From: Candidatus Aegiribacteria sp. MLS_C | Lineage (GTDB): Bacteria > Fermentibacterota > Fermentibacteria > Fermentibacterales > JCC-6 | Reading direction: 5' to 3' | DNA: 64,000 nt | Assembly: GCA_002030045.1 (NCBI GenBank) | Contig: LQBI01000024.1 | Span: 202,848 to 266,847, forward strand | Shown: one piece after another, positions 28,313 through 61,248 of the stretch | Layout of the letters: each line of letters begins with the position of its first letter | How positions within the stretch are numbered: position 1 is the first letter of the stretch | Position numbers and translations under genes: made by a program | Notes under the pieces: generated by a model | The model's database searches: none | What the model was told of the DNA's origin: nothing | What the model saw: the letters and a program-made list of their open reading frames with translations, nothing else

Positions 28313-29455
28313 CCGTGTGTCTGTTGAACAATGATTCAGAAGGACCGCCCGATAGCAGCATGAAGCGGACGGCGCCAGGCGCCGCCGCTGATGCTGAGCG
28401 TTGACGAGATGGAAACGGCGGGTCAGGTCCGAATCAGTGTGAGATTCATGAGCCTTTTCCGGAACGGGATCGGGGACATCCTCGGATGATGTCTTCGATT
28501 CCATCCAGTCCCAGTACTCCTCCATATCGAAGTATTCTCTGCCTTCCGTCCAAGCAACGTCCTGTTCGACCAGCAGCGCTCCGATAAACCCGAACGCCGA
28601 TGCCTGATTGGGAAAAATCCTGATTGCTCTCTCCCTCCTGCGGATCTCCTGGTTCAATCTCTCAATTGAATTAGTCGTTCTGAGTCTCTTGCGGTACTTC
28701 TCCGGAAGAGCCATGACCGCAGGAGCATCATCAAGGCGCTCTTCGAGTTTCGATACAGCCTTCGGCGCTGTTATTCCAAACCTGTCGAAAACATCACCGG
28801 CAAGCTCCCTGGCCGTCTCCTCGTCCGGAGCATCGAAGACAGGGCGTATCCTGTTCTTGAGCTCCTTCTTACGACGCTTGGGCGCGCTGTCCAGAATGTT
28901 CTTCATCAGGTGTGTCTGACAAGCCGCCAGCTGCTTCCGGGCAGCTGACTCCTTATGGCTTTTACAAGGCCTGCGTGGTTGTCTGACACAACAGGGTCCG
29001 CTCCGCTGAGACTTCTGCCGACAAGCCACCTCAGGAACTCCTCCCAGGATACCTCGCTCTTCGGGAACTCCATCCCCCGCATCTCCTCAACGACCTCCTC
29101 ACCCTGAGGGTGCTTACCCCGTTGATCACCATCTCGATAATGGCCAGCAGGAAGGCCTGCTCGCTGCGCTGAAGCCTGCAGAACGTCTCCGTATCGAACT
29201 GGCCGTCACGAAGCCGTGGCACCTGCAGCTCCAGCCTGCCGAACCCGGTCTTGATAAACCTCGACCGGTAACCACTCCTGTAGGCCGTTAGGCTCTCAGA
29301 ACGCTTGTGCTTCACAGCCCCGACCTGTTAAGCCGCCTGCTGGTCAAGGACCTGATTGGCCACCTTCTCCATCAGCCGGCCGACTCCTTCGTCGGAACTG
29401 AACAGGCCTTGCACATCTTCCGAATCAAGTGTAATGTTGTATTGGGTCATCGGAC
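28307..29455 (-). mobile_element. IS256-family transposase gene, disrupted into three frames (frameshifted or pseudogenised).
   Basis: N-terminal MTQYNITLDSEDVQGLFS, middle YRSGYRSRFIKTGFGRLELQVPRLRDGQF...GVSTLRV, and C-terminal TNSIERLNQEIRRRERAIRIFPN. The pieces are ORFs 29328..29576, 29031..29315 and 28307..29029. Confidence 0.7.
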
Positions 29456-29799: not shown

Positions 29800-30762
29800 T
29801 CAGAGGAACTTGTCCCTGAGCTTCTCCAGCATGTCGGCTGTCATCGAGTCCAGGTCCCATTCAGGCTTCCAGCCCCACTCTTCGCGTGCGGCGCTGTCGT
29901 CCACGCTCATGGGCCAGGTGTCGGCGATGGCCTGGCGGTAGTCCGGCTCGTAATCCACGCTGAAACCGGGTATGTGCTTCCTTATGCTGCCGGCTATGTC
30001 GCCTGCGGTTACCGACAGGGCTCCAACGTTGAAGTCGCTGTGGTGAACCAGTGAGCCGAAATCCGCCTCTGCAAGGTCCAGGGTGGCCTTGATGCAGTCG
30101 GGCATGTACATCATGGGGAGCATGGTGTCTTCCCTGACGAAACAGGTGTAGCGTCCCTCCTGGACCGCCTTGTAGTAGATGTCCACCGCGTAGTCAGTGG
30201 TGCCTCCGCCGGGAAGCGTCTCCGAGGAGATGATGCCGGGGTACCGGAGCCCTCTGACGTCGAGGCCGTACTTCCTGACGTAGTAGTCGCAGACCAGCTC
30301 CCCGGATACCTTGGTTACCCCGTACATGGTCTTGGGGCGGAGCACGGTCTCCTGCGGAGTATCCTTCCTGGGTGTCTCCGGTCCGAAGGCTGCTATCGAA
30401 CTGGGTATTATGACCCTGCTTATTTCGTGCTTCCGGGCGGCTTCCAGAACGTTGATGGTACCGTCCATGTTGACCTTCCAGCAGAGCTGGGGGTTCTGCT
30501 CACCGGTGGCGGAGAGTATCGCGGCCATGTGGAATACGGCGTCGATGTCCAGTTCGATGACGGTTTTCTCCACCGCATCGGCGTCCGTGACATCCAGCAG
30601 TGTCCAGGGCCCCCCCTCCATCACAGTGCTGTCCTTAACCGTCTTGATGTCGGAAGCTATAACGTTGTCCCTGCCGTAGCGGTCTCGGAGTTCAGCAGTC
30701 AGTTCCGAGCCTATCTGGCCCAGGGCGCCGGTAACCAGTATCCTCTTGAAGTCCTTGGTCAT
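29800..30762 (-). CDS. tdh: NAD-dependent epimerase/dehydratase family protein; probable SDR-type L-threonine 3-dehydrogenase.
   Basis: ILVTGALGQIGSEL Rossmann motif typical of SDR-type TDH. 320 aa. YxxxK present (YGVTK). Confidence 0.55.
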   Translation of the reverse strand: MTKDFKRILVTGALGQIGSELTAELRDRYGRDNVIASDIKTVKDSTVMEGGPWTLLDVTDADAVEKTVIELDIDAVFHMAAILSATGEQNPQLCWKVNMDGTINVLEAARKHEISRVIIPSSIAAFGPETPRKDTPQETVLRPKTMYGVTKVSGELVCDYYVRKYGLDVRGLRYPGIISSETLPGGGTTDYAVDIYYKAVQEGRYTCFVREDTMLPMMYMPDCIKATLDLAEADFGSLVHHSDFNVGALSVTAGDIAGSIRKHIPGFSVDYEPDYRQAIADTWPMSVDDSAAREEWGWKPEWDLDSMTADMLEKLRDKFL

Positions 30763-37985: not shown

Positions 37986-39188
37986 TCATACTACACCCAG
38001 TTCTTCCCCCGTCTCCCTGAATGCCCCGATGCACCTGTCCACTTGTTCGGTGGTATGGGCCGCCGAGAGCTGCACTCGAATCCTGGACTCACCTCTTGGA
38101 ACCACCGGGTAGAAGAACCCGATGGCGTAGATACCCTTTGCAAGCAGCCTGTCCGCAAACTCCTGCGCGAGGGCGGCGTCGTCCCGAAGGTGTCCGAAGA
38201 GAACGGGCACGATAGGGTGGTCTCCTTCCCGTATGCGGAACCCCGCCTCTTTCATGCCTCTCCTGAACCTTCTCTGGTTCTCTCGGAGCCTGTCCCTCTC
38301 GCTGCTGGAGCCCTCTATGATGTCCAGAACCGCCAGGGTCGTCCCGGTGATCACTGGAGCCAGGGTGTTCGAGAAGAGGTAGGGCCTTGACCTCTGTCGA
38401 AGCATCTCTATGATTTCCGACGGCCCGGATGTGAATCCTCCCGACGCTCCTCCGAGTGCCTTGCCGAAGGTCGACGTGACTATGTCGACCCTGTCGGTGA
38501 CCCCATGGTACTCCAGGGTCCCTCTCCCGGTATCCCCGATGAAGCCCGTGGCATGGGAATCGTCCACTATCACGAGCGCGCCGTACTTCTCTGCGAGGTC
38601 GCATATGGCGGGAAGCGGCGCTATGTCACCGTCCATGGAGAAGACCCCGTCGGTCACCACAGCCTTCGTCCTGCAACCCCTGGCGGTAATTAGTGCCTCC
38701 TCCAGGTCCTCCATGTCCGCGTGAGCGTACCTGAACCTCTTGGCTTTGCAGAGCCTTATTCCGTCGATGATCGAGGCGTGGTTGAGCTGGTCAGAGATGA
38801 TGGCGTCATTATCTGTTAGCAGTGGCTCGAAGAGACCCCCGTTGGCGTCGAAACAGCTGGAATAGAGGATGGTGTCTTCCTTGGACAGAAATCCCGATAC
38901 CCTTCCTTCAAGCTCCCTGTGCAGGTCCTGCGTCCCGCAGATGAACCTCACCGAGGAAAGCCCGAATCCCCGTTCCTGGAGGATACTGCAGGCTCTGTCC
39001 ACTAGACGCTGGTCCCCCGAGAGTCCCAGGTAATTGTTGGCGCAGAAGTTCAGGACCTCCCCGGTGGTCATCACCCCCACCCTTGTGCCCTGCCTTGTGG
39101 TGATGATCCTTTCCTTCTTGAACGTGCCGGATTCCCTGGCCCTCTCCAGGTTCTCCAGAAGAAGCGATCTCAGTTCGTCCGTATACAT
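37986..39188 (-). CDS. kbl: Glycine C-acetyltransferase / 2-amino-3-ketobutyrate CoA ligase (alpha-oxoamine synthase family).
   Basis: LNFCANNYLGL, SVRFICGTQDLH, YSSCFDANGG and DDSHATGF are near-identical to E. coli Kbl motifs (recalled from memory). The PLP lysine region is present. Confidence 0.8.
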   Translation of the reverse strand: MYTDELRSLLLENLERARESGTFKKERIITTRQGTRVGVMTTGEVLNFCANNYLGLSGDQRLVDRACSILQERGFGLSSVRFICGTQDLHRELEGRVSGFLSKEDTILYSSCFDANGGLFEPLLTDNDAIISDQLNHASIIDGIRLCKAKRFRYAHADMEDLEEALITARGCRTKAVVTDGVFSMDGDIAPLPAICDLAEKYGALVIVDDSHATGFIGDTGRGTLEYHGVTDRVDIVTSTFGKALGGASGGFTSGPSEIIEMLRQRSRPYLFSNTLAPVITGTTLAVLDIIEGSSSERDRLRENQRRFRRGMKEAGFRIREGDHPIVPVLFGHLRDDAALAQEFADRLLAKGIYAIGFFYPVVPRGESRIRVQLSAAHTTEQVDRCIGAFRETGEELGVV

Positions 39189-39272
39189 GCTGCCGCCCTT
39201 CACAGGCTGGTTCCAATGGTCAGACGGGATGCAAACATACTACCTGAAAAGGTAGTTGGCATGGAAAGGGGA

Positions 39273-50467: not shown

Positions 50468-51160
50468 TTACTCTCCGCCAAGTTCACGTGTTATCCTGCC
50501 CAGCACCATGGAAAGTCTTCCCAGCTTGATCTCGGGTCCGGTGGCGATCACCACGGTCTTCTCCGTATCGATCCCGGCTATGGCGAGGGAGACGCTGTCA
50601 CCCTCGATGAAAGCCTTGCCCGTAAGACCTCCCGGATACTCCGCCACGAATCCCTTTACGGAGCCCATGAAAGGCTCCAGCATCTGCATGAATCTCTCAT
50701 CGACCCCGGACCTGGCAAGGAGCTGTCCTTCAGGGGTCATCATGCATATGTAACCTATGCCGGGAATGGTTCCCAGGAGCTGGTCCAGTTTCGAGGACAG
50801 CACCCTGTCGATCTCGACGGAGAGACCGGCAGAGCTTGCAACGCCATCCTTCTTCCTCTCGTCGCGTTCCTTCAGGGCCCACATCAGTATATGGTGGAGG
50901 TCCTCCTGAATACTTGTCTCATCGGGTTCTATACCGGATTCGAAACTGAACTGGCCCTCGCTCCAGTCGACTATGTCCACCAGCACGTCACGGCCCTTCT
51001 TCTTGCCGTAACGGGCATGGATGAGTTCGCCCTTTCGGTAGAAGAACTCGGCCTTGCCATCGATGGATATGACCGTGAGCAACCCCGTCTTGCGGCTGGA
51101 ATTGGGGAACTGCAGGAGGGAGACGAAGCCGATGTCGCTCAGTGTCCCGTTAATGGGCAT
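50468..51160 (-). CDS. DUF4388 (PatA-N-like) domain fused to a roadblock/LC7-like domain.
   Basis: N-terminal GTLSDIGFVSLLQFPNSSRKTGLLTV...GELIHARYG. The C-terminal half has a roadblock-like fold pattern. Confidence 0.55.
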   Translation of the reverse strand: MPINGTLSDIGFVSLLQFPNSSRKTGLLTVISIDGKAEFFYRKGELIHARYGKKKGRDVLVDIVDWSEGQFSFESGIEPDETSIQEDLHHILMWALKERDERKKDGVASSAGLSVEIDRVLSSKLDQLLGTIPGIGYICMMTPEGQLLARSGVDERFMQMLEPFMGSVKGFVAEYPGGLTGKAFIEGDSVSLAIAGIDTEKTVVIATGPEIKLGRLSMVLGRITRELGGE

Positions 51161-51170
51161 TCAGTTCCTC

Positions 51171-51755
51171 TCAAAGTATTCGAAAACGGTTGATTATCTC
51201 CTTGCTTATCAGCTGAAGGGTCCTCATTACGCCTCTGCCCTCGGTGGCTATGGACTCAGTGACCGGTATGCCCTCGATGCCGAGTTCCTTCTCGAGGATC
51301 CCCAGTCTAAGCCTGGGATTGCAGTCCCTCTTGTTGTACTGCAGCACTACCGGGAAACCGTCGGGGTCGATTCCGTGGCTTACCAGGTTCTCGTTCATCA
51401 GCCTGTACATCTGGATGTTATCCTCGAGGCACTCGACCCTGGAATCGGCCACGAAGACGATGCCATCGGCTCCCTCGAGGATGATCCTCCTGCTGGCCTC
51501 GTAGTATATCTGCCCGGGTATGGTGTACAGGTGGAACTTGAGGGAGTAGCCCTGAACCGTCCCGAGGGATACCGGAAAGAAATCAAAGAAGAGCGTCCTT
51601 TCCTTCTCTGTGTCCAGCACCAGCATATCACCCTTGTACCTGTCCGTCAGCGTCCTGTGTATGAACAGAAGGTTCGTCGTCTTGCCGCTCATGCCCGGAC
51701 CGAAGTACACTATCTTGAAGACGATCTGCTTCTCAGCCGGATCCAGATGAGGCAT
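51171..51755 (-). CDS. mglA: MglA-like Ras-superfamily small GTPase.
   Basis: KIVYFGPGMSGKTTNL (P-loop), LYTIPGQIYY (switch II), DGIVFVADS, LQYNKRD (NKxD). Confidence 0.8.
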   Translation of the reverse strand: MPHLDPAEKQIVFKIVYFGPGMSGKTTNLLFIHRTLTDRYKGDMLVLDTEKERTLFFDFFPVSLGTVQGYSLKFHLYTIPGQIYYEASRRIILEGADGIVFVADSRVECLEDNIQMYRLMNENLVSHGIDPDGFPVVLQYNKRDCNPRLRLGILEKELGIEGIPVTESIATEGRGVMRTLQLISKEIINRFRIL

Positions 51756-52245
51756 CGTCCTCTTCACCAACCACGAAGATCCTGTCGATCAGGTTGAGAG
51801 CGTACTCCCGGAACTCGGGCACCGAAAGATCCTCCGCGTCCTCCTTCCTGGTCCTTTCCCTGTTCTCCAGTATCCTCAACAGGTCCGGTACTATGGACCT
51901 GGCCTCGTGTCTCACCCTGCCGATCCTTGTGTAGTCCTCGAAGACCACCACCATCATGTACCTCTGGCCGATGAGGGAGATGTGAATGTGCCTCTTCTCG
52001 CCCTGCTGAAGAAGTATCGAGAACTGCTCCTCGCCTACTATGTTAGCCACTTCCCGGGTTGCAGCGAACATCCCAGCCACCAGGGCGGCCAGGGCGGTGG
52101 AGTTGAGGCTCTCGGTGCTTCCGGCCTTGCCAACGCACATGCCTTCCCTGCTGATGAGAAGCGCCGTGACTGCCTCGGACCGCTCCACCAGACTGGACAG
52201 CAGTGTCGTGAGAGCCTGTGCATTACCGCTTCCGGGTAACTGCAT
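51733..52245 (-). CDS. Roadblock/LC7 domain protein (MglB-like).
   Basis: VTALLISREGMCVGKAG...MMVVVF roadblock pattern. Confidence 0.6.
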   Translation of the reverse strand: MQLPGSGNAQALTTLLSSLVERSEAVTALLISREGMCVGKAGSTESLNSTALAALVAGMFAATREVANIVGEEQFSILLQQGEKRHIHISLIGQRYMMVVVFEDYTRIGRVRHEARSIVPDLLRILENRERTRKEDAEDLSVPEFREYALNLIDRIFVVGEEDDASSGSG

Positions 52246-52268
52246 TCGATCCTCTCTCGTTCTTTCGA

Positions 52269-52625
52269 TCAGAGGGCGGCTTCGAGCTTGGGTACGCTTC
52301 TCCTGACCTGAAGACGGATACCGCCGAGGTTCGCGTCCTTGACGGCCACGATGGCCAGCAGTGCGTCCCGGCCGAGTGCCGTCATCATGACTATTCCACC
52401 CTTGTACTCCATCATGGCCTGGTCCATCTCCTCCAGACCCAGTTCACGTCCCACGCTCTCGGCGGAACCCATGCCGGTGGACACCATAGCGCCGATAGCC
52501 TCGGTGTCGGAGGATCCCGCGGAGGCCGCATCGATGACAAATCCATCACGGCCGACGCATACGGCCACATCTATGCCGCTCACCTCGACGAGTCCTTCAA
52601 GGATCTTGTGGAGTTCTTCCATTTT
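52269..52625 (-). CDS. Roadblock/LC7 domain protein (MglB-like), second copy.
   Basis: GIDVAVCVGRDGFVIDAAS...ALLAIVAV. AAAGGAAG RBS before the Met of MEELHK. Confidence 0.6.
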   Translation of the reverse strand, partial: KMEELHKILEGLVEVSGIDVAVCVGRDGFVIDAASAGSSDTEAIGAMVSTGMGSAESVGRELGLEEMDQAMMEYKGGIVMMTALGRDALLAIVAVKDANLGGIRLQVRRSVPKLEAAL

Positions 52626-53011
52626 GCTTCCTTTCCGTAGTTGTACCGAGCAAGCCTGCTCTGTAAGAGAACCTTTCGTACATTCCACAATTCAGTGTAC
52701 ATATTCTTCACAGCCGGGGGTTGAATGTCCAGTGCCTCCAGCAGCCCGATTGAAGCGCCCGGGCAGTCGGTGTACCCAATTCGGGGTCTAGCCTTCTCCC
52801 TTTTCCTGAGTATAGTAATGAAAGCTGAGAATGAATCTCGAAGCAGCGCTGAAACGACAGGAGGCTTATTTACGTACAAATTCCCGAACAGCAGTATGAT
52901 GCGCTTTTCAGGGAGTTTGCGCCGGAATAATCGATTCATGTTGTTTGAAGAGCAGGCAAGCGCCTGCGCAGGACCGTTCCCGGTACACCAGCTGAATATG
53001 GAGGTTGCAGC

Positions 53012-54051: not shown

Positions 54052-54615
54052 TCAGCCCCTGGGGCAGACGGGAAGCACAGTCCTGCCCCTGGAGCCGTTG
54101 ATGACCTCTGCTGCCGCCAGGTATATGGCCGACGTTCCGCAGATGATACCCTCCAGGCCCGTCATTACGGTGAACCACCCGGGCATGGGGAACCAGTGCC
54201 CCAGCGCGAGCAGCCAGAACAGGACCGTGAGACTCAGGAAGACGAACTGAAGGGCCACATTGGTCTTCCACGATGCGAACCACATGTAGAATGTGAATAC
54301 ACCCCACATGAACAGGTACCATCCCAGAAAGACGGGATCGTAGTCGAACCAGCCAAAGCGGGCGCCCAGGAATATGAACACCAGGGACAGCCAGAAGAGG
54401 CCATAGCTGGTGAAGGCTGTGGTACCGAAGGTATTGCCCCTCCTGAACTCCATGATCCCCGCGAAGACCTGCGCCAGTCCGCCGTAGAAGATCCCCATGG
54501 CGAGTATCATGATGTCGTTGCCGAAGAAGCCGGCATTGTGGATGTTGAGCAGCACGGTGGTCATACCGAATCCCATGAGGCCCAGGGGGGCCGGATTGGC
54601 CAGTCTTTCGCTCAT
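54052..54615 (-). CDS. satP: GPR1/FUN34/YaaH family acetate (succinate-acetate) channel.
   Basis: NPAPLGL signature. Six TM helices. Confidence 0.85.
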   Translation of the reverse strand: MSERLANPAPLGLMGFGMTTVLLNIHNAGFFGNDIMILAMGIFYGGLAQVFAGIMEFRRGNTFGTTAFTSYGLFWLSLVFIFLGARFGWFDYDPVFLGWYLFMWGVFTFYMWFASWKTNVALQFVFLSLTVLFWLLALGHWFPMPGWFTVMTGLEGIICGTSAIYLAAAEVINGSRGRTVLPVCPRG

Positions 54616-54694
54616 ATTACCTCCATTCGACCTGTCACAGGAGTGCCCGGCGCGGCACGCCAGGTACTGCGCCGGGCTTTCCTGATCGTATCCG

Positions 54695-55942
54695 CTAGGT
54701 GCCGTACCTGGCTATTATCTCGTCCTTGCCCAGTCCGAGTATGCCGTACTTCTCCCCTACCTTGCGGAAGGCGTCCACGCACTTGTCTATGTGTTCCTTC
54801 TCGTGGGCCGCGGAGAGCTGTACCCTGATGCGGGCCTTCCCGGCGGGCACCACAGGGAAGAAGAAGCCTATGACGTAGATTCCCTCGGCGTACATGTCCC
54901 TGGCCATGTCATTGGCCAGTCTGGCGTTGTAGAGCATCACGGGTACAATGGGAGTCTCGCCCGGCCTCATGTCCAGTCCCGCCTCCCCCATCCTCTTCCT
55001 GAAGTACCCTGTGTTCCATTCCAGCTTGTCCCTGCGCTCGGTACTCTTAGAGATAAGGTCGATGACCTTTATGGAGGCGCTCACGATGGGGGGCGCCAGG
55101 GAATTGCTGAAGAGATAGGGCCTGGCTTTCTGCCTGCACAGCTCCACCAGCTCGCTTCTTCCGGAGACGCAGCCACCTGAGGCTCCGCCGAGACCCTTGC
55201 CGAAGGTGGTGGTGATCAGGTCGACTCCGTCCATCACGCCGAAGTGCTCATGGGTTCCCCTTCCGGTTTTCCCTATGAAGCCCGAGGCATGCGAATCGTC
55301 CACCAGGAGCATGGCGTCGTACTCGTTGCATAGGGCCACCATCTCGTCGAGGGGTGCCAGATCGCCGTCCATGGAGAAGACACCGTCCGTGACCACCATT
55401 CTGGTCCGCTTGTCCTGGTGGTGCTCCAGCTTCTTTCTGAGGTGGTCCGTGTTCATGTGCTTGAAGGTGTCGTACTCAGCGGAACAGAGCCTTATTCCGT
55501 CCACGAGGGATGCGTGTATGAGCCTGTCGGCGATGATCACGTCCTCCTGCCCCAGTACCGCCTCGAAGACGCCGGAGTTGGCGTCCATGCAGGATGGGAA
55601 CAGCAGGGTGTCCTCCATTCCAAGGAACTCGGAAACCCTGTTCTGGAGTTCCCTGTGAATATCCTGCGTACCGCAGATGAACCTCACCGAACTCATGCCG
55701 TAACCCCTGGTGTCCAGCCCCTCGTGAGCCGCCTTTATCACCTCGGGATGGCTGGAGAGCCCGAGGTAGTTGTTGGCGCAGAAGTTGAGCACCCGCTTGT
55801 GCGGAGCGCCCTCGGGGTATTCCACCTCGATCTCGGCGTCCTGCTGGGAGCAGATGAACCTCTTCTCCTTATAGAGACCGTCGTCCCGAATACGCTGAAT
55901 CTCATCGGTGAAAATGGACCTCGTCTTTTCGGTGAACGCCAT
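54695..55942 (-). CDS. Alpha-oxoamine synthase (KBL/BioF/SPT-like) paralog.
   Basis: LNFCANNYLGL, SVRFICGTQDIH and DDSHASGF. It is the second AOS in the window. GGAGG RBS. Adjacent to a dedicated ACP. Confidence 0.8.
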   Translation of the reverse strand: MAFTEKTRSIFTDEIQRIRDDGLYKEKRFICSQQDAEIEVEYPEGAPHKRVLNFCANNYLGLSSHPEVIKAAHEGLDTRGYGMSSVRFICGTQDIHRELQNRVSEFLGMEDTLLFPSCMDANSGVFEAVLGQEDVIIADRLIHASLVDGIRLCSAEYDTFKHMNTDHLRKKLEHHQDKRTRMVVTDGVFSMDGDLAPLDEMVALCNEYDAMLLVDDSHASGFIGKTGRGTHEHFGVMDGVDLITTTFGKGLGGASGGCVSGRSELVELCRQKARPYLFSNSLAPPIVSASIKVIDLISKSTERRDKLEWNTGYFRKRMGEAGLDMRPGETPIVPVMLYNARLANDMARDMYAEGIYVIGFFFPVVPAGKARIRVQLSAAHEKEHIDKCVDAFRKVGEKYGILGLGKDEIIARYGT

Positions 55943-55956
55943 GGATCCTCCTTCCT

Positions 55957-56205
55957 TCAGCCCAGGTGCTTCTGAACGAGCCTGCAGATGGAGTTCACGG
56001 TATCAAAGGCCTCAGGCGTGGCTTCCTCGTCGGGAAGGGTGATCCTGTACTTGCTCTCCAGGAATCTCTTCAGGGATACCATGGAGAAACTGTCCACTAT
56101 ACCCGATGATATCAGCGGGGAGTCGTAGGAGACCTCATCCCCCTCGTCCTCGTCGAGGTACTCGTCGACTATGTACTCCAGCACGATCTCCTTCATCTCG
56201 TCCAT
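55957..56205 (-). CDS. Acyl carrier protein (dedicated).
   Basis: GIVDSFSMVSL phosphopantetheine-attachment Ser motif. AAAGGAG RBS before the Met of MDEMKEI. ORF 55957..56277 is an over-extension. Confidence 0.7.
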   Translation of the reverse strand: MDEMKEIVLEYIVDEYLDEDEGDEVSYDSPLISSGIVDSFSMVSLKRFLESKYRITLPDEEATPEAFDTVNSICRLVQKHLG

Positions 56206-56289
56206 TCCGGCTCCTTTCATCCTCTGCCTGTGGAAGAGTATCCATTTCCCGATACTCGTCGGTGTTCTCTGGTCCAACAGCTCCAGTGC

Positions 56290-58035
56290 TCATTCATCCG
56301 AAAGGGTCGACAGGTCGCCGACCTCCTCGCCCCATTCGAGAGCCTTCAGGTACCTGCGGACGATCTTTCCCGAACGGGTCTTTGGAAGCCTGTCACGGTA
56401 CTCTATCTCCTGCGGCATGGCCAGCGGAGACAGTCTCTTGCGTATGAAGTTCATGATGTCCAGCTCAAGCTCATCGGAGGGTTCGTAGCCCGGCTTTAAA
56501 GTGACGAAGGCCTTGACGACCTCCATGTTCACCTCGTCGGGCTTGCCCACTGCGGCAGCTTCCGCGATGGCCTCGTGTTCTACCAGTGCCGATTCGATCT
56601 CGAAGGGACCCACCAGGTGTCCGCCGGTGTTGATCACATCATCATCCCTTCCCACGAACCAGAAGTAACCGTCGGCGTCTATGCTGGCCCTGTCCCCCGA
56701 TACGTACCAGAGGTCGCCGCCGGTCCTGAGTTCCTCGGGCATGGCGTCATCGGGGGCTCCGACGAACTTGCTCCTGTAGACATCCGGCTTCTTCCAGTAC
56801 TCCCTGAACATGGACGGCCAGCCGGGACGGAACGCTATCAGACCCACCTTGCCGGGATCCTGCAGGGGCTCATGGGTGGCCAGGTCCAGGACGGTGGCCT
56901 CAATGCCGGGGAAGGGTTTCCCCATGGAACCAGGCTTTATCTCCATGCCCGGGTAGTTGCAGATCATCATGGCACCGGTCTCGGTCTGCCAGAAGGTATC
57001 GTGGAACTTGAGCCCGAAGACCTCGCCGCTCCAGATAACCGCTTCCGGGTTGAGGGGCTCACCCACCGATGCCAGGTGCCTGAGGGAGGAGAGGTCGTAG
57101 TTCCTGACCACCTCGTCCCCGTCCTTCATGAGGGCCCTTATTGCGGTAGGAGCCGAGTACCACACCGTGACCCTGTTGTCCTGTATGAACCGGTACCACC
57201 TGCTGGTGGTGAAACCTGAATCCAGCACGCACTGGGTGATGCCCAGGGACCATGGTCCTATTATTCCGTAGCTGGTGCCGGTAACCCATCCCGGGTCTGC
57301 TGTGCACCAGTAGACGTCATCGTCGCGCAGGTCCAGGACCCAGCTGGCGGTCAGGGCCTGTCCCCAGACCGAGTTGTGTACGTGAAGGGCGCCCTTGGGC
57401 TGGCCCGTGGTCCCGGAAGTGTAGTGCAGTACGGACGGGGTTTCCGGACCGGACGGATAGACCTCGAAGGTGTCCACCCTGGGACCGGCCTCAACATCGA
57501 AGAAAACCTCGTCCTCCCTGACCCTGTCCGGATTCCCCTCCACGACCACCACGGTCTTCAGTTCGGGAAGGCGCTCCCTGACCTTGCGCACCTTCTTCAC
57601 GTGCTTTGAGGTGGTGAGTATGGCCTTCGTTCCCGCGCTGGCAAGCCTCACTTCCAGCGACTCGTCACCGAACGCGGAGAAGAGAGGCTGGGCGATGGCG
57701 CCCATCTTGAGTATTCCGAGGAATGAGAAGTACAGGCTGGGGATCTTGTCCATGAAGATGCATACCCTGTCCCCGGGCTGAATGCCCAGATCCTTCAGGA
57801 ATCTGGCGAAACCGTTGGAGTATGCCCTGAGATCCTCGAAAGTGTAAACGGACCTGCGGTCACCGAAACCTTCCCATATGAGTGCTGGTTTGTCGCCCCT
57901 GCCCATCCTGCATATCCTGTCGGAACAGATAGCCCCGATGTTAAGCAGCTCGCCTTCCTTCCAGTTCAGGATCTCCCTGGCAGTGTCCCAGCTGAAATCC
58001 TCCACCCGCTTCTCGTAGGATCCGATGTTGCTCAA
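56290..58035 (-). CDS. Acs-family AMP-forming acyl-CoA/ACP ligase (acetyl/propionyl/acetoacetyl-CoA synthetase-like). TTG start.
   Basis: YTSGTTGQPKG, WYSAPTAIRAL, DTFWQTETG, C-terminal SGKIVRR. GGAGGAG RBS before TTG. Confidence 0.8.
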   Translation of the reverse strand: MSNIGSYEKRVEDFSWDTAREILNWKEGELLNIGAICSDRICRMGRGDKPALIWEGFGDRRSVYTFEDLRAYSNGFARFLKDLGIQPGDRVCIFMDKIPSLYFSFLGILKMGAIAQPLFSAFGDESLEVRLASAGTKAILTTSKHVKKVRKVRERLPELKTVVVVEGNPDRVREDEVFFDVEAGPRVDTFEVYPSGPETPSVLHYTSGTTGQPKGALHVHNSVWGQALTASWVLDLRDDDVYWCTADPGWVTGTSYGIIGPWSLGITQCVLDSGFTTSRWYRFIQDNRVTVWYSAPTAIRALMKDGDEVVRNYDLSSLRHLASVGEPLNPEAVIWSGEVFGLKFHDTFWQTETGAMMICNYPGMEIKPGSMGKPFPGIEATVLDLATHEPLQDPGKVGLIAFRPGWPSMFREYWKKPDVYRSKFVGAPDDAMPEELRTGGDLWYVSGDRASIDADGYFWFVGRDDDVINTGGHLVGPFEIESALVEHEAIAEAAAVGKPDEVNMEVVKAFVTLKPGYEPSDELELDIMNFIRKRLSPLAMPQEIEYRDRLPKTRSGKIVRRYLKALEWGEEVGDLSTLSDE

Positions 58036-58068
58036 AGGTTCTCCTCCGTTCCCCGGCAGAGCCGGCGC

Positions 58069-58482
58069 TCAGCCGGATGCTGTTGCGATGGCTATTGCAT
58101 TATCCCTTGTATGGCTGATGGATATCTCCATTCGTCCGACTCCCATCGTGCGGGCCCTGTCCAGAACGGCCCCACTGAGTTCCACCGTTACCCGTCCGGA
58201 AACCTCTCTCAGTATCTCCACGCATTTCCAGCCCATGCCCTGGGACAAACCCGCTCCCAGGGCCTTGAAGACGGCTTCCTTGGCCGCGAACCGGGCTGCA
58301 TAGCTCTCCCAGGGCCTTGCTCTGGAGTCGCAGTACTCGATCTCCCCCGGCAGGAACAGCTCGTCGATCATAGCGGCGTCAAGCCGTTTTCTGAAAGTCT
58401 TCAGATCGACGATATCGACCCCGACACCGATGAGTCTCAAACAGGCAGTCTCCCGGGATGAACGATATAGGGTCAAATACAC
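58069..58482 (-). CDS. acpS: Holo-ACP synthase (4'-phosphopantetheinyl transferase AcpS type). Start uncertain.
   Basis: GVDIVDL...FAAKEAVFKALG...EISISHTRDNAIA. Confidence 0.7.
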   Translation of the reverse strand: MYLTLYRSSRETACLRLIGVGVDIVDLKTFRKRLDAAMIDELFLPGEIEYCDSRARPWESYAARFAAKEAVFKALGAGLSQGMGWKCVEILREVSGRVTVELSGAVLDRARTMGVGRMEISISHTRDNAIAIATASG

Positions 58483-58590: not shown

Positions 58591-59970
58591 ATGACAAGAG
58601 ACTCATTCTCCCGTATCCGAAGGCGGATCGCGGCACCGGCCATGCTCCTGGCCGCCACGACGGTCCTCGCTGCAGCAGGCGGCAGCGTCATGACCGTTCC
58701 GCCCATGGATGATACATACATCCATCTCGTGTACGGAGAAAGCCTGATTTCCGGAGAACCCATGGTATACAGCGGAAGCGAACCATCCTCAGGCCTGACC
58801 AGCCCGCTATGGCTGCTCCCCTCGGCCCTCTCCGCTCTTGCAGGCAGGTCAGCGGGGCCCCTGATCCTCATGGGCTGTTCACTGGTCCTCTCCCTGCTGC
58901 TCCTGTACTCAATGGGAACGCTTTCCGCAATGGTGATGGTCCTTGCAGGTCCTTTCCTGTTCCATTCCGGAAGCGGTATGGAGACATCCCTTTCCTGCCT
59001 GCTTGTCTTCCTCGTCTGGAAGTGGATAGATGAAGGCAGAGGCAGAACGGGCCCCGGAGGTCTGCTGCTGGCCGCGGCATTCCTCACCAGACCCGAACTG
59101 ATCCTTCTGGTCATTCCCATGACACTCTCGATGGACCGGCGCACGCCCGGAAGCATCGCGGCCCTGGCTGCTCCCTCGATTGCAGCCGGTCTGATCTGGG
59201 CAGCATGGAACATGTGGTCCACGGGCCTTCCGCTTCCATCGACCTTCTACGCAAAGCTGTCGGTATCCTGGTTCACTTCGCTGAGGAACGGGCTTCCCGG
59301 GCTGGCCTACTCCCTCCTGATCACATCCCCCCTTCTGCTCTTTTCCACCGTCTCCGGCGTTCTCATGCTGTTCTCCAGGAGGAGGACGGACAGGAGGTCC
59401 CTGGCCCTGGGACTGACGGTGGTCCTCCTGTTCCTGGTGACCTTCGCCCTGCAACCGAACAGTTATTTCCAGATGAGATACTACCTTCCGGCACTGACGG
59501 CCTCGGTCATGTCATCATCCGTCTGGCTCTCCGGACTTGGAGGACGGAAGCGGCTCAATACCGCTCTGCTGGTGCTTTCGATGCTGCCGGGCCTGATCGT
59601 CTACGGGGAAAGGAGGACAGGGGCGTCCCGGGACGTCATGTGCATCGACGTCGCCCCTGCGAGGTACCTGGAGGAGATAGCCCTGGCGGGTGAGAAGGTG
59701 GCGGCGGCGGACATTGGAGCGGTCGGGTGGATATCCGGCCTGGAGATCGTCGACCTCGACGGACTGGTCACTCCTGAAAGGCTTCCGGGTCCTGGCCGGC
59801 AGGGCTGGGAATGGATCGGTAACAGTGCGGACTATCTTCTGGCGTTCCCCCGCCAGTACTCGGGACTCATTCAGGAGGCAGGGGACGACATAAGCTTCCT
59901 GAGGGGGTTCGGCACTCAGTCCAGCGTGATCTGCGGAGAGGACTCGGTGGCTCTCTGGCGCATAGAATAG
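58591..59970 (+). CDS. GT-C-fold glycosyltransferase-like polytopic membrane protein.
   Basis: At least 10 TM helices. DDxY-type motif MDDTYIH in the first periplasmic loop. Confidence 0.4.
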   Translation: MTRDSFSRIRRRIAAPAMLLAATTVLAAAGGSVMTVPPMDDTYIHLVYGESLISGEPMVYSGSEPSSGLTSPLWLLPSALSALAGRSAGPLILMGCSLVLSLLLLYSMGTLSAMVMVLAGPFLFHSGSGMETSLSCLLVFLVWKWIDEGRGRTGPGGLLLAAAFLTRPELILLVIPMTLSMDRRTPGSIAALAAPSIAAGLIWAAWNMWSTGLPLPSTFYAKLSVSWFTSLRNGLPGLAYSLLITSPLLLFSTVSGVLMLFSRRRTDRRSLALGLTVVLLFLVTFALQPNSYFQMRYYLPALTASVMSSSVWLSGLGGRKRLNTALLVLSMLPGLIVYGERRTGASRDVMCIDVAPARYLEEIALAGEKVAAADIGAVGWISGLEIVDLDGLVTPERLPGPGRQGWEWIGNSADYLLAFPRQYSGLIQEAGDDISFLRGFGTQSSVICGEDSVALWRIE

Positions 59971-60039: not shown

Positions 60040-61248
60040 ATGACGGAGCAGGATAACAGGTCCCATAATCCCGGAATGATCCAGGACAGCATTCCCAGCG
60101 CGGCTAACAGGTTCGTCATCATCTGTGTTCTCGTTGCCGTGTTCGTGCTCCTTTCGGCCTATTTCAATCTCGACCGCAGGCAGTCGATAAGCTACGCCCA
60201 TTTCGCATACATACCGATAATATTCGCCGGCTTCTGGTGGGGCAGGAAAGCCATACTCGTGGCACTGGTTCTCGGTGCTGACGTGCTTGCCTTCAGCATA
60301 TTCAGCAGCGTGGGCGGGCCTGTCTGGGCAGACATCATAAGGGTGGTCGCGTTCCTCATAGTCGCATTCGTCATAGGTGAGCTGAGCACGGAGCTGACCA
60401 ATACCCACAGGGCGCTCCGCGAGAGGGAGGAAAGGCTCAGGAAGACCAACGCCGCCCTGAGGAAGTTCTCGAAACTGAGGAAGGCCTTCCTTCACATAGC
60501 CATACATGACATGAAATCTCCGGTGTCCGCCACCACAATGCTCCTTCACAGCCTTCAGACCCTCCTGGGCGACAGCATTAACGAACAGCAGGAGCACATC
60601 ATCGAGAGGATGCACGCAAGACTCGAGGAAGCGGTATCCTTCCTCAGGGACTTCCAGCTCTTCGCCCAGCTGGAGGATACCTCGCAGATACGCAAACAGG
60701 CCTCCGAGCTTGACCTGAACAGAGTAATAAGTGATGCGGTCTCGGCGAACATGGACCTTGCGGGCGAGAAGAAGCAGCTCATGGACACGGACCTTGACCC
60801 CGACCTGCCGATCGTCGCCGGAGTGGAGAGACTCATCCGGGAGGTGATAGGCAACCTGATCACCAACGCCATCAAGTACACTCCCGAGGGAGGCCACGTG
60901 ACGGTCAGGAGCATGACCAAGGGGAAATCGGTCGTTACCGTCGAGGTGGAGGACAACGGAATAGGCATATCCCCGAAGAACCAGAAGAAGCTCTTCAGGG
61001 AGTTCGTAAGGATAAAGGACAACGATGTCAACGGTCAGAAGGTCGGCGGTATAGGTCTCGGTCTCTCCATAGTCAAGCGGATAATTGACATGCACGGAGG
61101 AAGGGTATACGTGATAAGCGCACCCGGCAGGGGCAGCATCTTCGGTTTCGACCTCAGAGTGCTCCCCCCGGATGAGGACCCGCTAATAAGACCGGCCAGG
61201 AGAGTCTCTCCGGAGCAGGTCCCGAGGGAAGGCTACGTCCCGGAGTAA
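60040..61248 (+). CDS. Sensor histidine kinase.
   Basis: Four N-terminal TM helices. H-box AFLHIAIHDMKSP. N, G1 and G2 boxes (LITNAIKYT, GGIGLGLSIVKRIIDMHGG). Confidence 0.85.
   Translation: MTEQDNRSHNPGMIQDSIPSAANRFVIICVLVAVFVLLSAYFNLDRRQSISYAHFAYIPIIFAGFWWGRKAILVALVLGADVLAFSIFSSVGGPVWADIIRVVAFLIVAFVIGELSTELTNTHRALREREERLRKTNAALRKFSKLRKAFLHIAIHDMKSPVSATTMLLHSLQTLLGDSINEQQEHIIERMHARLEEAVSFLRDFQLFAQLEDTSQIRKQASELDLNRVISDAVSANMDLAGEKKQLMDTDLDPDLPIVAGVERLIREVIGNLITNAIKYTPEGGHVTVRSMTKGKSVVTVEVEDNGIGISPKNQKKLFREFVRIKDNDVNGQKVGGIGLGLSIVKRIIDMHGGRVYVISAPGRGSIFGFDLRVLPPDEDPLIRPARRVSPEQVPREGYVPE

Follow-up and report, generated by a model that had tools for sequence, protein, structure and literature searches.

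A four-gene operon with its own carrier protein suggests an ACP-dependent version of acetate activation and the KBL reaction

On a contig of Candidatus Aegiribacteria sp. MLS_C, the gene for a small carrier protein (ACP) lies between those for an acetyl-CoA-synthetase-type ligase and an alpha-oxoamine synthase (AOS), both of which pass the curated NCBI cutoffs for CoA-dependent enzymes. What is a dedicated carrier doing there? The locus was analysed within a window of 64,000 nucleotides, the whole stretch of DNA studied. All five open reading frames described in an earlier sequence-only reading were found, and the motifs quoted there (YTSGTTGQPKG, FWQTETG, VDSFSMV and NPAPLGL) are present in the window proteins. 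The five genes share the minus strand with gaps of 14–84 nt, and the core order is AcpS, AcsA-type ligase, 82-aa ACP and KBL-type AOS. These genes, and two pathway-related ones elsewhere in the window, are as follows.

58069–58482, minus strand: AcpS-type 4'-phosphopantetheinyl transferase (PF01648, E 1e-18)
56290–58035, minus strand: AcsA-type (short, ~570-aa) AMP-forming ligase, 581 aa (AMP-binding, E 5e-77)
55957–56205, minus strand: dedicated ACP, 82 aa, start MDEMKE (set by homolog lengths)
54695–55942, minus strand: KBL-family AOS paralog, 415 aa (TIGR01822)
54052–54615, minus strand: SatP/AceTr-family acetate(/succinate) channel, a facultative accessory gene (NF038013, 239 bits, cutoff 50)
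37986–39203, minus strand: canonical KBL (glycine C-acetyltransferase) paralog, outside the operon (51% identity to the cluster AOS)
29800–30762, minus strand: SDR-type L-threonine 3-dehydrogenase (TDH), outside the operon (53% identity to the protein of locus L042)

The gene identities are established. AcpS scored 80 bits against TIGR00556 (cutoff 45). Its homologs begin MR(L/I)IGVGIDIVD, and translation probably begins at the TTG at 58440, which would give a protein of 123 aa as in the homologs. For the ACP, a 106-aa ORF beginning with TTG was rejected, as every homolog is 80–83 aa long. Phosphopantetheine is predicted to attach at Ser39, in GIVDSFSMVSL. The ACP and AcpS genes supply the cluster with a carrier protein and a phosphopantetheinyl transferase of its own, as had been claimed from the sequence. 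The public annotation uses the names "glycine C-acetyltransferase" and "acyl carrier protein".

A scan seeded with the ACP matched more than 523 species. The core order recurred in at least 10 phylum-level groups, among them Fermentibacterota, Bacteroidota, Acidobacteriota, Gemmatimonadota and Zixibacteria. The ligase adjoined the ACP, which follows it, in 71 of 77 loci, the AOS came after the ACP in 69 of 72, and AcpS was upstream of the ligase in 57 of 77 related loci. Among the 69 loci with both flanks, drawn from many phyla, the ACP lay between ligase and AOS in 60; the complete four-gene set was present in 49/69. Counted in the reverse direction, the ACP follows 63 of the 96 ligases bearing the family A8 motif. 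AcpS is missing from 20 of the 77 loci and the ligase from six, while three acidobacterial loci (L024, L048, L052) keep ligase and ACP and have no KBL-type AOS. Identities were 63–91% for the ACP across phyla, 57–89% for the ligase and 64–91% for the AOS; the carrier is no less conserved than the two enzymes. With E-values of such size and a synteny kept in more than 500 species, chance is ruled out. By name, many hosts belong to anaerobic sediment or digester lineages. No cultured host of the operon was found, nor was any description of the cluster in the literature searched.

The channel gene behaved differently. SatP is the gene immediately after the AOS in 14 of 80 loci (in Fermentibacterota, Eisenbacteria, Bacteroidota and Acidobacteriota, and also at locus L092), and an ActP-like transporter occurs in five further loci, giving an acetate-type transporter in 19/80 from several phyla. 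Hence the idea of a co-conserved five-gene block holds for the four-gene core but not for SatP, and an acetate transporter belongs to the block only as a recurrent companion of one type or the other. The conserved unit is four genes, with SatP outside it.

The ligase exceeded the cutoff of NCBIfam NF003313, 'acetate--CoA ligase' (752 bits, cutoff 729), and its closest solved relative was the 572-aa acetyl-CoA synthetase AcsA of B. subtilis, likewise of the short type (PDB 9G79; 555 bits). Of the acetate-pocket residues, V310, T311 and V386 do not vary across the ligase family and W414 is kept in 65 of 67 members, which bears out the earlier assignment to the acetyl-CoA-synthetase rather than the FadD type. 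This Trp-gated pocket would exclude long acyl chains, and from its conservation we infer that the acyl group is acetyl. R584 and the catalytic Lys609 are also kept. Unlike the enzyme of an acs locus, however, the ACP-linked ligases form a distinct monophyletic clade among short acetyl-CoA synthetases (30 of 30 bootstraps) at the low-score edge of the family (752 bits compared with 908 for a non-ACP relative). Eleven positions separate ACP-linked from non-ACP ligases. Seven of these (E. coli Acs 189, 194, 555, 581, 590, 592 and 594) flank R191 and R584, the CoA-nucleotide contacts of Acs (PMC10455477). A Leu in place of the thioester-step Arg526 of Acs was found in 67/67 family members; it was considered as a mark of ACP use and rejected, since the non-ACP relatives (908 bits, acetate--CoA ligase) share it. 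We propose that the cluster enzyme may be an acetate:[carrier protein] ligase.

The AOS scored 571 bits against TIGR01822, glycine C-acetyltransferase (cutoff 493), and 441–448 bits to solved KBLs, compared with 265 for SPT, 200 for BioF and 110 for CqsA. Identification as BioF, SPT or CqsA was rejected, as all three models scored below their cutoffs (the SPT models at 240–333 bits, with cutoffs of 500–670); the CqsA-, capnine- or sphingolipid-like chemistry suggested earlier is not borne out by these scores. The AOS clade was monophyletic and nested within the KBLs in 60 of 60 bootstraps. Model scores and tree therefore place it inside the KBL family and not within BioF, a placement that would have told against the sequence-only reading. 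The presence of the second KBL-type gene in the window agrees with its description as a kbl paralog. The nine active-site residues checked (N50, H136, S185, D210, H213, T241, K244, S274 and R368 in E. coli KBL) are unchanged in 62/62 AOS members, so that at these positions the active site equals that of the KBLs of E. coli (tdh-kbl) and Cupriavidus necator (PDB 1FC4, 7BXP); this points to glycine/KBL chemistry, and glycine would be the amino acid. In contrast to those KBLs, the AOS belongs to a separate subclade with 12 fixed clade-specific substitutions and a conserved extra C-terminal tail, ILG..K..II..YG, which the canonical KBL of the window lacks. It also scores lower on the KBL model (571 bits) than that canonical KBL (605 bits) and the canonical KBLs scored (605–625 bits), and it is paired with a dedicated carrier and an acetate-activating ligase, not simply with tdh. 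The tail and substitutions, along with the ligase positions near the CoA contacts, suggest a changed partner surface, and the monophyly of both enzyme clades fits co-evolution with the ACP. We propose that the AOS may act as an acetyl-ACP:glycine C-acetyltransferase.

The nearest NCBIfam model for the ACP was the ornithine-lipid ACP, at 57 bits (E 2e-15), which is under the cutoff. An AlphaFold model (pLDDT 86) gave a four-helix carrier fold with Ser39 opening helix II. The nearest solved folds were PigG, PltL, a glycyl carrier protein and DltC (TM 0.76–0.88), at sequence identities of only 23–30%. Carriers of this kind, from PigI-PigG, PltF-PltL, DltA-DltC and the pair with the Bradyrhizobium glycine:[carrier protein] ligase (PDB 7THN, 6O6E, 4H2U, 4BPG), receive their load straight from a stand-alone ANL enzyme whose gene is adjacent, which favours loading of the ACP by the ligase. 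Those ANL enzymes, however, load amino acids, whereas the cluster ligase has the acetate pocket of Acs.

Both enzymes could still use CoA, as both exceed equivalog cutoffs. They might be chance neighbours of the carrier, the ligase being the acetyl-CoA synthetase of the cell and the AOS a second acetyl-CoA-using glycine C-acetyltransferase, while ACP and AcpS serve some other purpose, for instance a regulator or a different pathway. The CoA-enzyme names in public records, the retained R584 and K609, and the acetate transporters and Pat-like GNAT proteins typical of acs loci agree with this. Such an arrangement is nevertheless distinctly unlikely: the ACP gene is placed between those of ligase and AOS across many phyla, the ACP is as well conserved as they are, both enzymes form separate subclades at the low-score edges of their families, the genome has a canonical KBL as well, and the ACP resembles carriers loaded by stand-alone adenylating enzymes. 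The retention of R584 and K609 counts against ACP use, and so do the loci that lack AcpS, ligase or AOS.

The neighbours of the block were then considered. The canonical KBL adjoined it in 26 of 80 loci, and TDH lay within 6 kb in nine; in L042, L045 and L049 TDH is part of the operon, directly upstream of AcpS. The L042 protein scored 430 bits to solved L-threonine 3-dehydrogenases. Locus L092 unites TDH, KBL, AcpS, ligase, ACP, the ACP-linked KBL paralog and SatP, and the window itself holds both TDH and canonical KBL besides the operon. These recurrent partners place the module in threonine/glycine/acetate metabolism and not in signalling, a possible function suggested earlier, although aminoacetone or pyrazines may still arise as a signalling by-product. 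The 9/80 figure for adjacent TDH counts against the threonine link. An AMP-forming ligase with an acetate transporter and Pat-like acetyltransferases also has the look of an ordinary acs locus (in E. coli, acs-yjcH-actP).

That the module makes a small aminoketone (aminoacetone or a relative) to serve as a signal or a precursor of pyrazines, or makes an amino-lipid head group, seems quite improbable. The ligase-ACP-AOS architecture does parallel the bacterial sphingolipid module of Caulobacter and Sphingomonas wittichii, in which serine palmitoyltransferase is accompanied by a dedicated ACP and an acyl-ACP synthetase; logic and gene order are shared, an ANL ligase loading the ACP and an AOS-family PLP enzyme condensing the acyl group with an amino acid. 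In the operon, however, ligase and AOS come from short-chain families, Acs and KBL respectively, the SPT, CqsA and BioF models stay under cutoff, the acetate pocket shuts out long chains, and no ceramide genes lie near the block. Across the 80 loci the block had no recurrent gene for a receptor, a regulator, lipid synthesis or tailoring beside it, the recurrent partners being those of primary metabolism, and nothing points to an amino-lipid head group. In favour of an aminoketone, the unstable 2-amino-3-oxobutanoate breaks down to aminoacetone, from which alkylpyrazines form by condensation (PMC9814548).

An acetyl-CoA hydrolase/transferase-GNAT fusion adjoins the ACP in eight loci, seven of them acidobacterial, and a Pat-like ACS-GNAT protein occurs in seven others. 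Together with the three loci lacking the AOS, this could mean that ligase and ACP are a general acetyl-ACP donor, for instance to the GNAT fusions, with the KBL paralog as one client of several. We regard this as very improbable, as the AOS so regularly follows the ACP, and GNAT proteins beside acs-type ligases classically regulate the ligase itself.

The reading we prefer, at an even chance on the sequence evidence, is that the operon is an ACP-dependent version of acetate activation and the KBL reaction, a private carrier probably replacing CoA in the AOS reaction. It matches the short acyl-ACP plus amino acid condensation put forward in the sequence-only reading. AcpS would convert the carrier to the holo form. 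The ligase would adenylate acetate, provided in some lineages through SatP or an ActP-like transporter, and pass the acetyl group to the phosphopantetheine thiol of the carrier instead of CoA, forming acetyl-S-ACP. The KBL paralog would then interconvert acetyl-S-ACP and glycine with 2-amino-3-oxobutanoate and holo-ACP, so that the ACP would be both acyl acceptor and acyl donor. The 2-amino-3-oxobutanoate may be tied to L-threonine through the SDR-type TDH, or may decay to aminoacetone. Precedents exist for both steps: the AOS domain of SxtA (saxitoxin) takes a short acyl-ACP, and the citrate lyase ligase CitC uses acetate and ATP to acetylate a carrier thiol. SxtA, however, is PKS-like and multidomain, with arginine as its condensation partner. 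CitC lies outside the ANL enzymes, and the prosthetic group on its carrier is a different one. Neither has an architecture homologous to that of the four-gene operon.

As to direction, we infer that the synthetic one is preferred, from acetate and glycine through 2-amino-3-oxobutanoate to threonine. Driven by ATP-to-AMP cleavage, the ligase could keep nearly all of a small private carrier pool in the acetylated form, and this would drive a Claisen condensation that is disfavoured with the shared CoA pool. The catabolic direction would be served by the canonical CoA-dependent KBL of the same genomes. The same ACP chemistry might run catabolically, as a fermentative, ATP-conserving threonine pathway: TDH would yield 2-amino-3-oxobutanoate, the KBL paralog with holo-ACP would give glycine and acetyl-ACP, and the reversed ligase would convert acetyl-ACP, AMP and PPi to acetate and ATP, the acetate leaving through SatP or ActP. 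An AMP-forming Acs is reportedly run in reverse by Syntrophus aciditrophicus, SatP-type channels could export acetate, and many hosts carry the names of anaerobic lineages. Cleavage is also the usual working direction of KBL, and TDH with canonical KBL is the classical catabolic pair (PMC9814548). We consider this catabolic run unlikely, yet the foremost of the alternatives, as the canonical KBL already fills the role and leaves the dedicated carrier unexplained, AMP-forming ligases usually go towards the thioester, and in E. coli ActP and SatP adjoin acs for acetate uptake.

If the ACP-dependent reading is true, a familiar reaction, that of KBL, runs on a private carrier in hundreds of uncultured bacterial species.

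Five closely spaced open reading frames, with gaps of 14-84 nt between them, were found on the minus strand at 54052-58482 of the window. From upstream to downstream, they were assigned as follows.

Genes of the block at 54052-58482
minus strand, upstream-most of the five: AcpS-type PPTase (PF01648 match, E 1e-18)
minus strand, second, downstream of AcpS: AMP-binding ligase, 581 aa
minus strand, third, between the ligase and the AOS: small carrier protein (ACP)
minus strand, fourth, downstream of the ACP: alpha-oxoamine synthase (AOS), 415 aa, class-II aminotransferase fold
minus strand, last of the five, downstream of the AOS: GPR1/FUN34/YaaH channel

The motifs quoted in the sequence-only reading of this DNA were all present in the window. 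As every homolog of the ACP is 80-83 aa long, its start was placed at the ATG at 56205, giving a protein of 82 aa. For AcpS, the TTG at 58440 is the probable start, which would give 123 aa and match the length of its homologs. The channel is an AceTr/SatP acetate transporter, scoring 239 bits on NF038013 (cutoff 50) and carrying the NPAPLGL motif. When the region from 53.3 to 58.8 kb was scanned for sigma-70 promoters and intrinsic terminators, the counts equalled those expected from shuffled sequence.

Divergent from AcpS, on the plus strand, lies a gene for a 459-aa multi-pass membrane protein without a Pfam match (58591-59970), and adjoining it is a DUF4118/HisKA/HATPase histidine kinase (60040-61248, plus strand). 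Among the related loci examined, the membrane protein is syntenic with the block in L014, L015, L017, L032, L040 and L078, and the kinase in L014, L032, L040 and L078; the loci sharing them are mostly labelled Fermentibacterota, and the pair is not syntenic in other phyla. A run of small minus-strand ORFs upstream of the block (50468-52688) includes a 199-aa P-loop protein (GPGMSGKTT) between proteins of about 140-230 aa of unknown type; judged by its sequence, the run looks like a small-GTPase module.

The ACP alone scored 17.6 on the Pfam PP-binding model, below the cutoff of 20.8. An AlphaFold model of the protein (18 homologs; pLDDT 85.9) showed the four-helix carrier topology, with predicted helices at residues 2-16, 39-53, 64-67 and 70-81. 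Ser39 of DSFSMV, part of an invariant DS motif, is located at the start of predicted helix II, and a PPTase for the carrier, AcpS, is encoded in the operon. When the model was subjected to Foldseek, it matched the carriers PigG, PltL and DltC with a probability of 1.0. The nearest solved folds were PigG, PltL, the carrier of the Bradyrhizobium glycine:[carrier protein] ligase, and DltC; the AcpP proteins of fatty-acid synthesis ranked lower. Each of the four nearest carriers stands alone and receives its load straight from a stand-alone adenylating enzyme whose gene is adjacent, an arrangement that the block matches. The nearest family model for the ACP, that of the ornithine-lipid OlsHI carrier protein (NF052616), was rejected, the score being 57 bits against a cutoff of 130.

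The AOS passed two glycine C-acetyltransferase equivalogs, TIGR01822 (571 bits; cutoff 493) and NF005394 (567 bits; cutoff 460), and cluster-type homologs from Bacteroidota and Acidobacteriota scored 571-577 bits on TIGR01822. Compared with solved enzymes, it gave 441-448 bits to KBLs (C. necator 7bxp, 7v58 and E. coli 1fc4), 313 bits to the Thermus AONS/KBL, 265 bits to the Sphingobacterium SPT, about 200 bits to BioF and 110 bits to CqsA. A phylogeny of the AOS was among the checks proposed by the sequence-only reading. A neighbor-joining tree was constructed from 62 cluster-type AOS together with second paralogs, either adjacent to the block or distant from it; the references were E. coli Kbl, two solved KBLs and, for BioF, the E. 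coli enzyme. In this tree, the cluster-type AOS formed one clade in 60/60 bootstraps. The clade lay inside the KBL family, surrounded by the second paralogs and the reference KBLs (E. coli Kbl, 7bxp and 7v58); the canonical KBLs were paraphyletic around it, and BioF was a distant outgroup.

SPT, ALAS and CqsA, which are absent from the tree, were excluded because the scores to solved structures were 110-265 bits against 441-448 for KBLs. The suggested likeness to SPT, CqsA or capnine pathways consequently had to be dropped as a family assignment, on these scores as well as on HMM cutoffs. Bacterial SPT models NF047599/47600/47603 gave 333 bits (cutoff 640), 288 bits (cutoff 500) and 239 bits (cutoff 670); the model for a CqsA-type autoinducer synthase, NF005526, gave 190 bits against 428; and a capnine-type assignment failed in the same two respects. 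An AOS belonging to BioF with biotin genes nearby, the outcome named at the start as speaking against the proposal, was not what we saw: the TIGR00858 score was 367 bits, below the cutoff of 426, and biotin genes were absent from the recurrent neighbour clusters of the 80 loci surveyed.

Nine residues of E. coli KBL (N50, H136, S185, D210, H213, T241, K244, S274 and R368), which, going by the 1FC4 structure, are active-site or substrate-binding positions, the PLP lysine among them, were invariant in 62/62 cluster-type AOS and also in 29/29 canonical KBLs. Twelve substitutions are fixed in the cluster-type clade (E. coli numbering: S109P, F112M, A128V, x133R, F/Y151D, R152T, D160H, A168H, T215S, L264C, S268A and H325T). 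A 12-residue C-terminal extension, ILG..K..II..YG, is likewise conserved in the cluster-type AOS and missing from canonical KBLs. In family and catalytic apparatus the AOS is hence a KBL, yet its own clade, fixed substitutions and tail mark it as a dedicated paralog. The tail and the 12 substitutions, along with a dedicated ACP in 69/72 loci, suggest a thioester partner other than CoA. The AlphaFold model of the AOS had a mean pLDDT of 54.6, too low for inspecting the C-terminal tail.

The window also contains a canonical KBL at 37986-39203, 51% identical to the cluster AOS. It scored 605 bits on the KBL model, above the cluster AOS, and has no C-terminal tail. At five other loci, mostly from Delongbacteria (L018, L026, L030, L035 and L068), the cluster AOS is immediately followed by a second AOS that formed the sister group of the cluster clade, and the two that were inspected (L026 and L035) carry the same kind of C-terminal tail (...EIIEMYPI). 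From this placement and tail, the second AOS seems to have arisen by tandem duplication of the ACP-linked type and not to be a canonical KBL.

The ligase passed the short AcsA-type acetate--CoA ligase equivalog NF003313 marginally, with 752 bits against a cutoff of 729. Its homologs scored 752-757 bits, and one relative without an ACP scored 908. The best solved relative was a 572-aa acetyl-CoA synthetase, 9g79 (555 bits), the long Acs enzymes giving about 350 bits. Residue numbering was verified on a HMMER alignment to S. enterica Acs (2p2f), and the family was compared on E. coli Acs. V310, T311 and V386 were kept in 67/67 ligases and the gating W414 in 65/67; these four are the acetate-pocket residues of Acs. 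Inspection of the pocket, another check proposed at the outset, thus gave an acetate type. Because the pocket is conserved, a long or bulky acyl substrate is unlikely, and acetate, or at most propionate, is expected. Catalytic K609 and R584 were invariant in 67/67 ligases.

Three arginines of Acs, R191, R526 and R584, have been shown to be important in binding CoA and in the thioester step (PMC10455477). R526 is replaced by Leu in 67/67 ligases, and R191 is not conserved; R191 is also missing from B. subtilis AcsA. Leu526 was considered as a marker of ACP use and rejected, since it also occurs in 33/96 ligases without an ACP, one of them scoring 908 bits. The presence of Leu526 in carrier-less ligases implies that much of the short AcsA family can do without Arg526, a residue reported to matter in the CoA-dependent catalysis of long Acs. 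Metagenomes hold a carrier-less sister clade of AcsA-type ligases that also has Leu at this position (L108, L116, L118, L123, L132, L135, L145, L159, L163, L195, L198, L204, L208 and others).

The ACP-linked ligases formed one clade in 30/30 bootstraps, and 11 positions separate them from their non-ACP relatives. Seven of the 11 (E. coli Acs 189, 194, 555, 581, 590, 592 and 594) flank R191/R194 and R584, the site of CoA nucleotide binding. Changes near the CoA-nucleotide contacts are the pattern that a change of thiol carrier would predict, and no proof of it. The plain reading that the ligase and the AOS both use CoA is favoured by both enzymes still passing CoA-enzyme models, and we regard it as quite improbable. 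If the enzymes do use CoA, what is left is an acs-kbl operon interrupted by a very conserved ACP whose presence is unexplained.

A 16-residue insertion (PDDAMPEELRTGGDL-like) was observed in the ligase just before WYVSGD (residues ~426-443, window 56710-56760). It was found in the window and in six other sampled loci, including ones from Fermentibacterota and Krumholzibacteriia, and was missing from the sampled homologs of Bacteroidota, Acidobacteriota and Delongbacteria and from B. subtilis AcsA.

The ACP alignment was scanned against one genome per species, and at least 523 matches were confirmed, the best 80 of which were used for the locus survey. The closest ACP homologs bearing an organism name were from Candidatus Aegiribacteria or Fermentibacteria, which makes Fermentibacterota the probable host group of the window. 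The hosts of the best 80 loci comprise Fermentibacterota, Krumholzibacteriia, Delongbacteria, Eisenbacteria, Gemmatimonadales, Fibrobacteraceae, Bacteroidota (Bacteroidales, Rikenellaceae, Prolixibacteraceae and Cytophagia), Ignavibacteriales, KSB1, Zixibacteria, Acidobacteriota (Vicinamibacterales and Aminicenantes) and Deferrimicrobium. Among the ACP and AOS homologs found, none came from a cultured host, the names being those of MAGs or metagenomes. The order AcpS-ligase-ACP-AOS on one strand was the rule in these 80 loci. Adjacency was counted by tblastn only at loci with sufficient flanking sequence, hence the differing denominators.

Adjacency of the block genes
ligase directly upstream of the ACP: 71/77 loci
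AOS directly downstream of the ACP: 69/72 loci
AcpS-like gene upstream: 57/77 loci
all four genes together: 49/69 loci

The five-gene block that had been put forward was therefore borne out for its first four genes; the fifth, SatP, is facultative (14/80). Across phyla, the ACP was 63-91% identical, the ligase 57-89% and the AOS 64-91%, so that conservation of the carrier equals or exceeds that of its two enzyme partners. In the reverse test, metagenome contigs were searched with the ligase family motif A8, NT[GA]GHLVxPFE. Of the 120 ligase homologs obtained, 96 had at least 800 nt downstream, and an ACP followed in 63/96. The other 33/96, without a carrier, were more distant (40-66% identical, all but three below 60%).

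To characterize the neighbourhood, all flanking ORFs of the 80 loci were clustered, and recurrent families were annotated by Pfam, NCBIfam and PDB searches. Only a few partner families recurred.

Partner families recurring around the block
second, canonical-type KBL: 26/80 loci
SatP: 14/80 loci (Fermentibacterota, Eisenbacteria, Bacteroidota, Acidobacteriota)
SSF transporter nearest the MctC/ActP monocarboxylate/acetate symporters: 5/80 loci
SDR-type L-threonine 3-dehydrogenase (TDH): 9/80 loci, immediately before AcpS in L042, L045 and L049; matches solved TDHs at 430 bits
Pat-like ACS-GNAT protein: 7/80 loci
acetyl-CoA hydrolase/transferase-GNAT fusion: 8/80 loci, seven of them acidobacterial

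Each of these partners concerns acetate or the threonine/2-amino-3-oxobutanoate/glycine node. On the 3-Mb contig of locus L092, a divergent TDH is followed by KBL, AcpS, ligase, ACP, the ACP-linked KBL paralog and SatP. The window has its own TDH at 29800-30762, 53% identical to that of L042. The lipid or signalling purpose suggested by the sequence-only reading found no footing here, as no lipid, regulator-receptor or tailoring genes recurred among the flanking ORFs of the 80 loci. Beside the TDH gene of the window lies a 240-aa ORF (28307-29029, minus strand) with an end typical of a transposase C-terminus (…IERLNQEIRRRERAIRIFPN…), which may be an IS remnant.

Several neighbours were observed in particular groups. 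The KBL-type AOS after the ACP is missing in acidobacterial loci L024, L048 and L052, the ligase and ACP being kept. A 623-aa acetyl-CoA hydrolase/transferase with a C-terminal GNAT domain adjoins the ACP on the opposite strand in some acidobacterial loci (L024, L048, L052; also L034, L064, L074, L080). Upstream in L024 and L052 there is another AOS that shares 37% identity with that of the cluster, and the L052 copy passes TIGR01825, 'BioF/Kbl family' (565 bits; cutoff 535). Besides the cluster AOS, the ligase-ACP pair may serve further clients. The Pat-like protein (895 aa; ADP-forming acyl-CoA-synthetase domains and a C-terminal GNAT) lies within 6 kb of the block in L045, L046, L061, L063, L072, L073 and L086, from Bacteroidota, Zixibacteria and Aminicenantes. 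By analogy with Pat and Acs, the protein may control the ligase through lysine acetylation. In Bacteroidota, a 380-aa iron-type alcohol dehydrogenase is conserved upstream of the canonical KBL on the opposite strand (L046, L060, L061, L063, L071, L072, L073, L075, L077). Among its weak NCBIfam matches is YiaY, an Fe-type 'L-threonine dehydrogenase'; the enzyme could act on threonine or on aminoacetone/aminopropanol.

Gene identity, conservation and co-occurrence are what the data establish. In the scheme that follows, the acceptor, acyl group and amino acid, as well as the direction, are our inference. AcpS would convert the ACP to the holo-carrier. The ligase would form acetyl-AMP and then transfer the acetyl group onto the carrier thiol. 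The KBL paralog would catalyse acetyl-S-ACP + glycine <-> 2-amino-3-oxobutanoate + holo-ACP. TDH would connect 2-amino-3-oxobutanoate to threonine, or the unstable keto acid would yield aminoacetone, a decay that has been described (PMC9814548). The condensation of a short acyl-ACP with an amino acid, as originally proposed, would agree with this best-supported reading of the ligase, dedicated ACP and KBL-type AOS. The block resembles the Spt/ACP/acyl-ACP-synthetase initiation module of bacterial sphingolipids in that a ligase would load a dedicated ACP for an AOS. It differs in being built from short-chain members of both families and in failing the SPT, BioF and CqsA tests; by family, its enzymes belong with Acs and KBL, as distinct monophyletic subclades.

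The synthetic direction is favoured, since AMP-forming ligases that are paired with uptake-type acetate transporters, as in E. coli acs-yjcH-actP, normally drive thioester formation. A private carrier pool, acetylated at the cost of ATP-to-AMP hydrolysis, would moreover justify a dedicated carrier, and synthesis would account for a CoA-type KBL beside the ACP-linked one. On thermodynamic grounds, we infer that a small acetylated carrier pool could push the condensation beyond the reach of the shared acetyl-CoA/CoA ratio. Set against these arguments is a serious rival, the catabolic conversion of threonine to glycine and acetate with recovery of ATP, which we consider rather unlikely. Returning to synthesis, we tentatively propose, as a possible reading, a CoA-independent 'private thioester pool', in which an Acs relative acetylates the ACP and a KBL relative uses the acetyl-ACP, so that acetate and glycine give 2-amino-3-oxobutanoate and then threonine, insulated from the CoA-dependent Tdh/Kbl. 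Such a pool would be widespread, behind routine annotation, in FCB-group and acidobacterial anaerobes.

The system is invisible in annotation, as records read 'glycine C-acetyltransferase' and 'acyl carrier protein' and the ligase passes an acetate--CoA ligase model. No description of the cluster was found in the searchable full-text literature, which leaves out most subscription journals, so an earlier report is possible. If the proposal is true, the ligase would be, as far as we found, the first acetate:ACP ligase of the Acs family, and the AOS the first KBL to depend on an ACP. The breadth and conservation of the block are striking, the enzyme clades occurring in more than 500 species from phyla that are abundant in the environment and mostly uncultured. 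With automated names identical to those of CoA enzymes, reconstructions would misassign acetate, glycine and threonine fluxes in these lineages. As a compact set of four genes, the block could be used to produce alpha-amino-beta-keto acids or aminoketones from acetate, and would be a clean natural example of a dedicated carrier separating the opposing directions of one reversible reaction.
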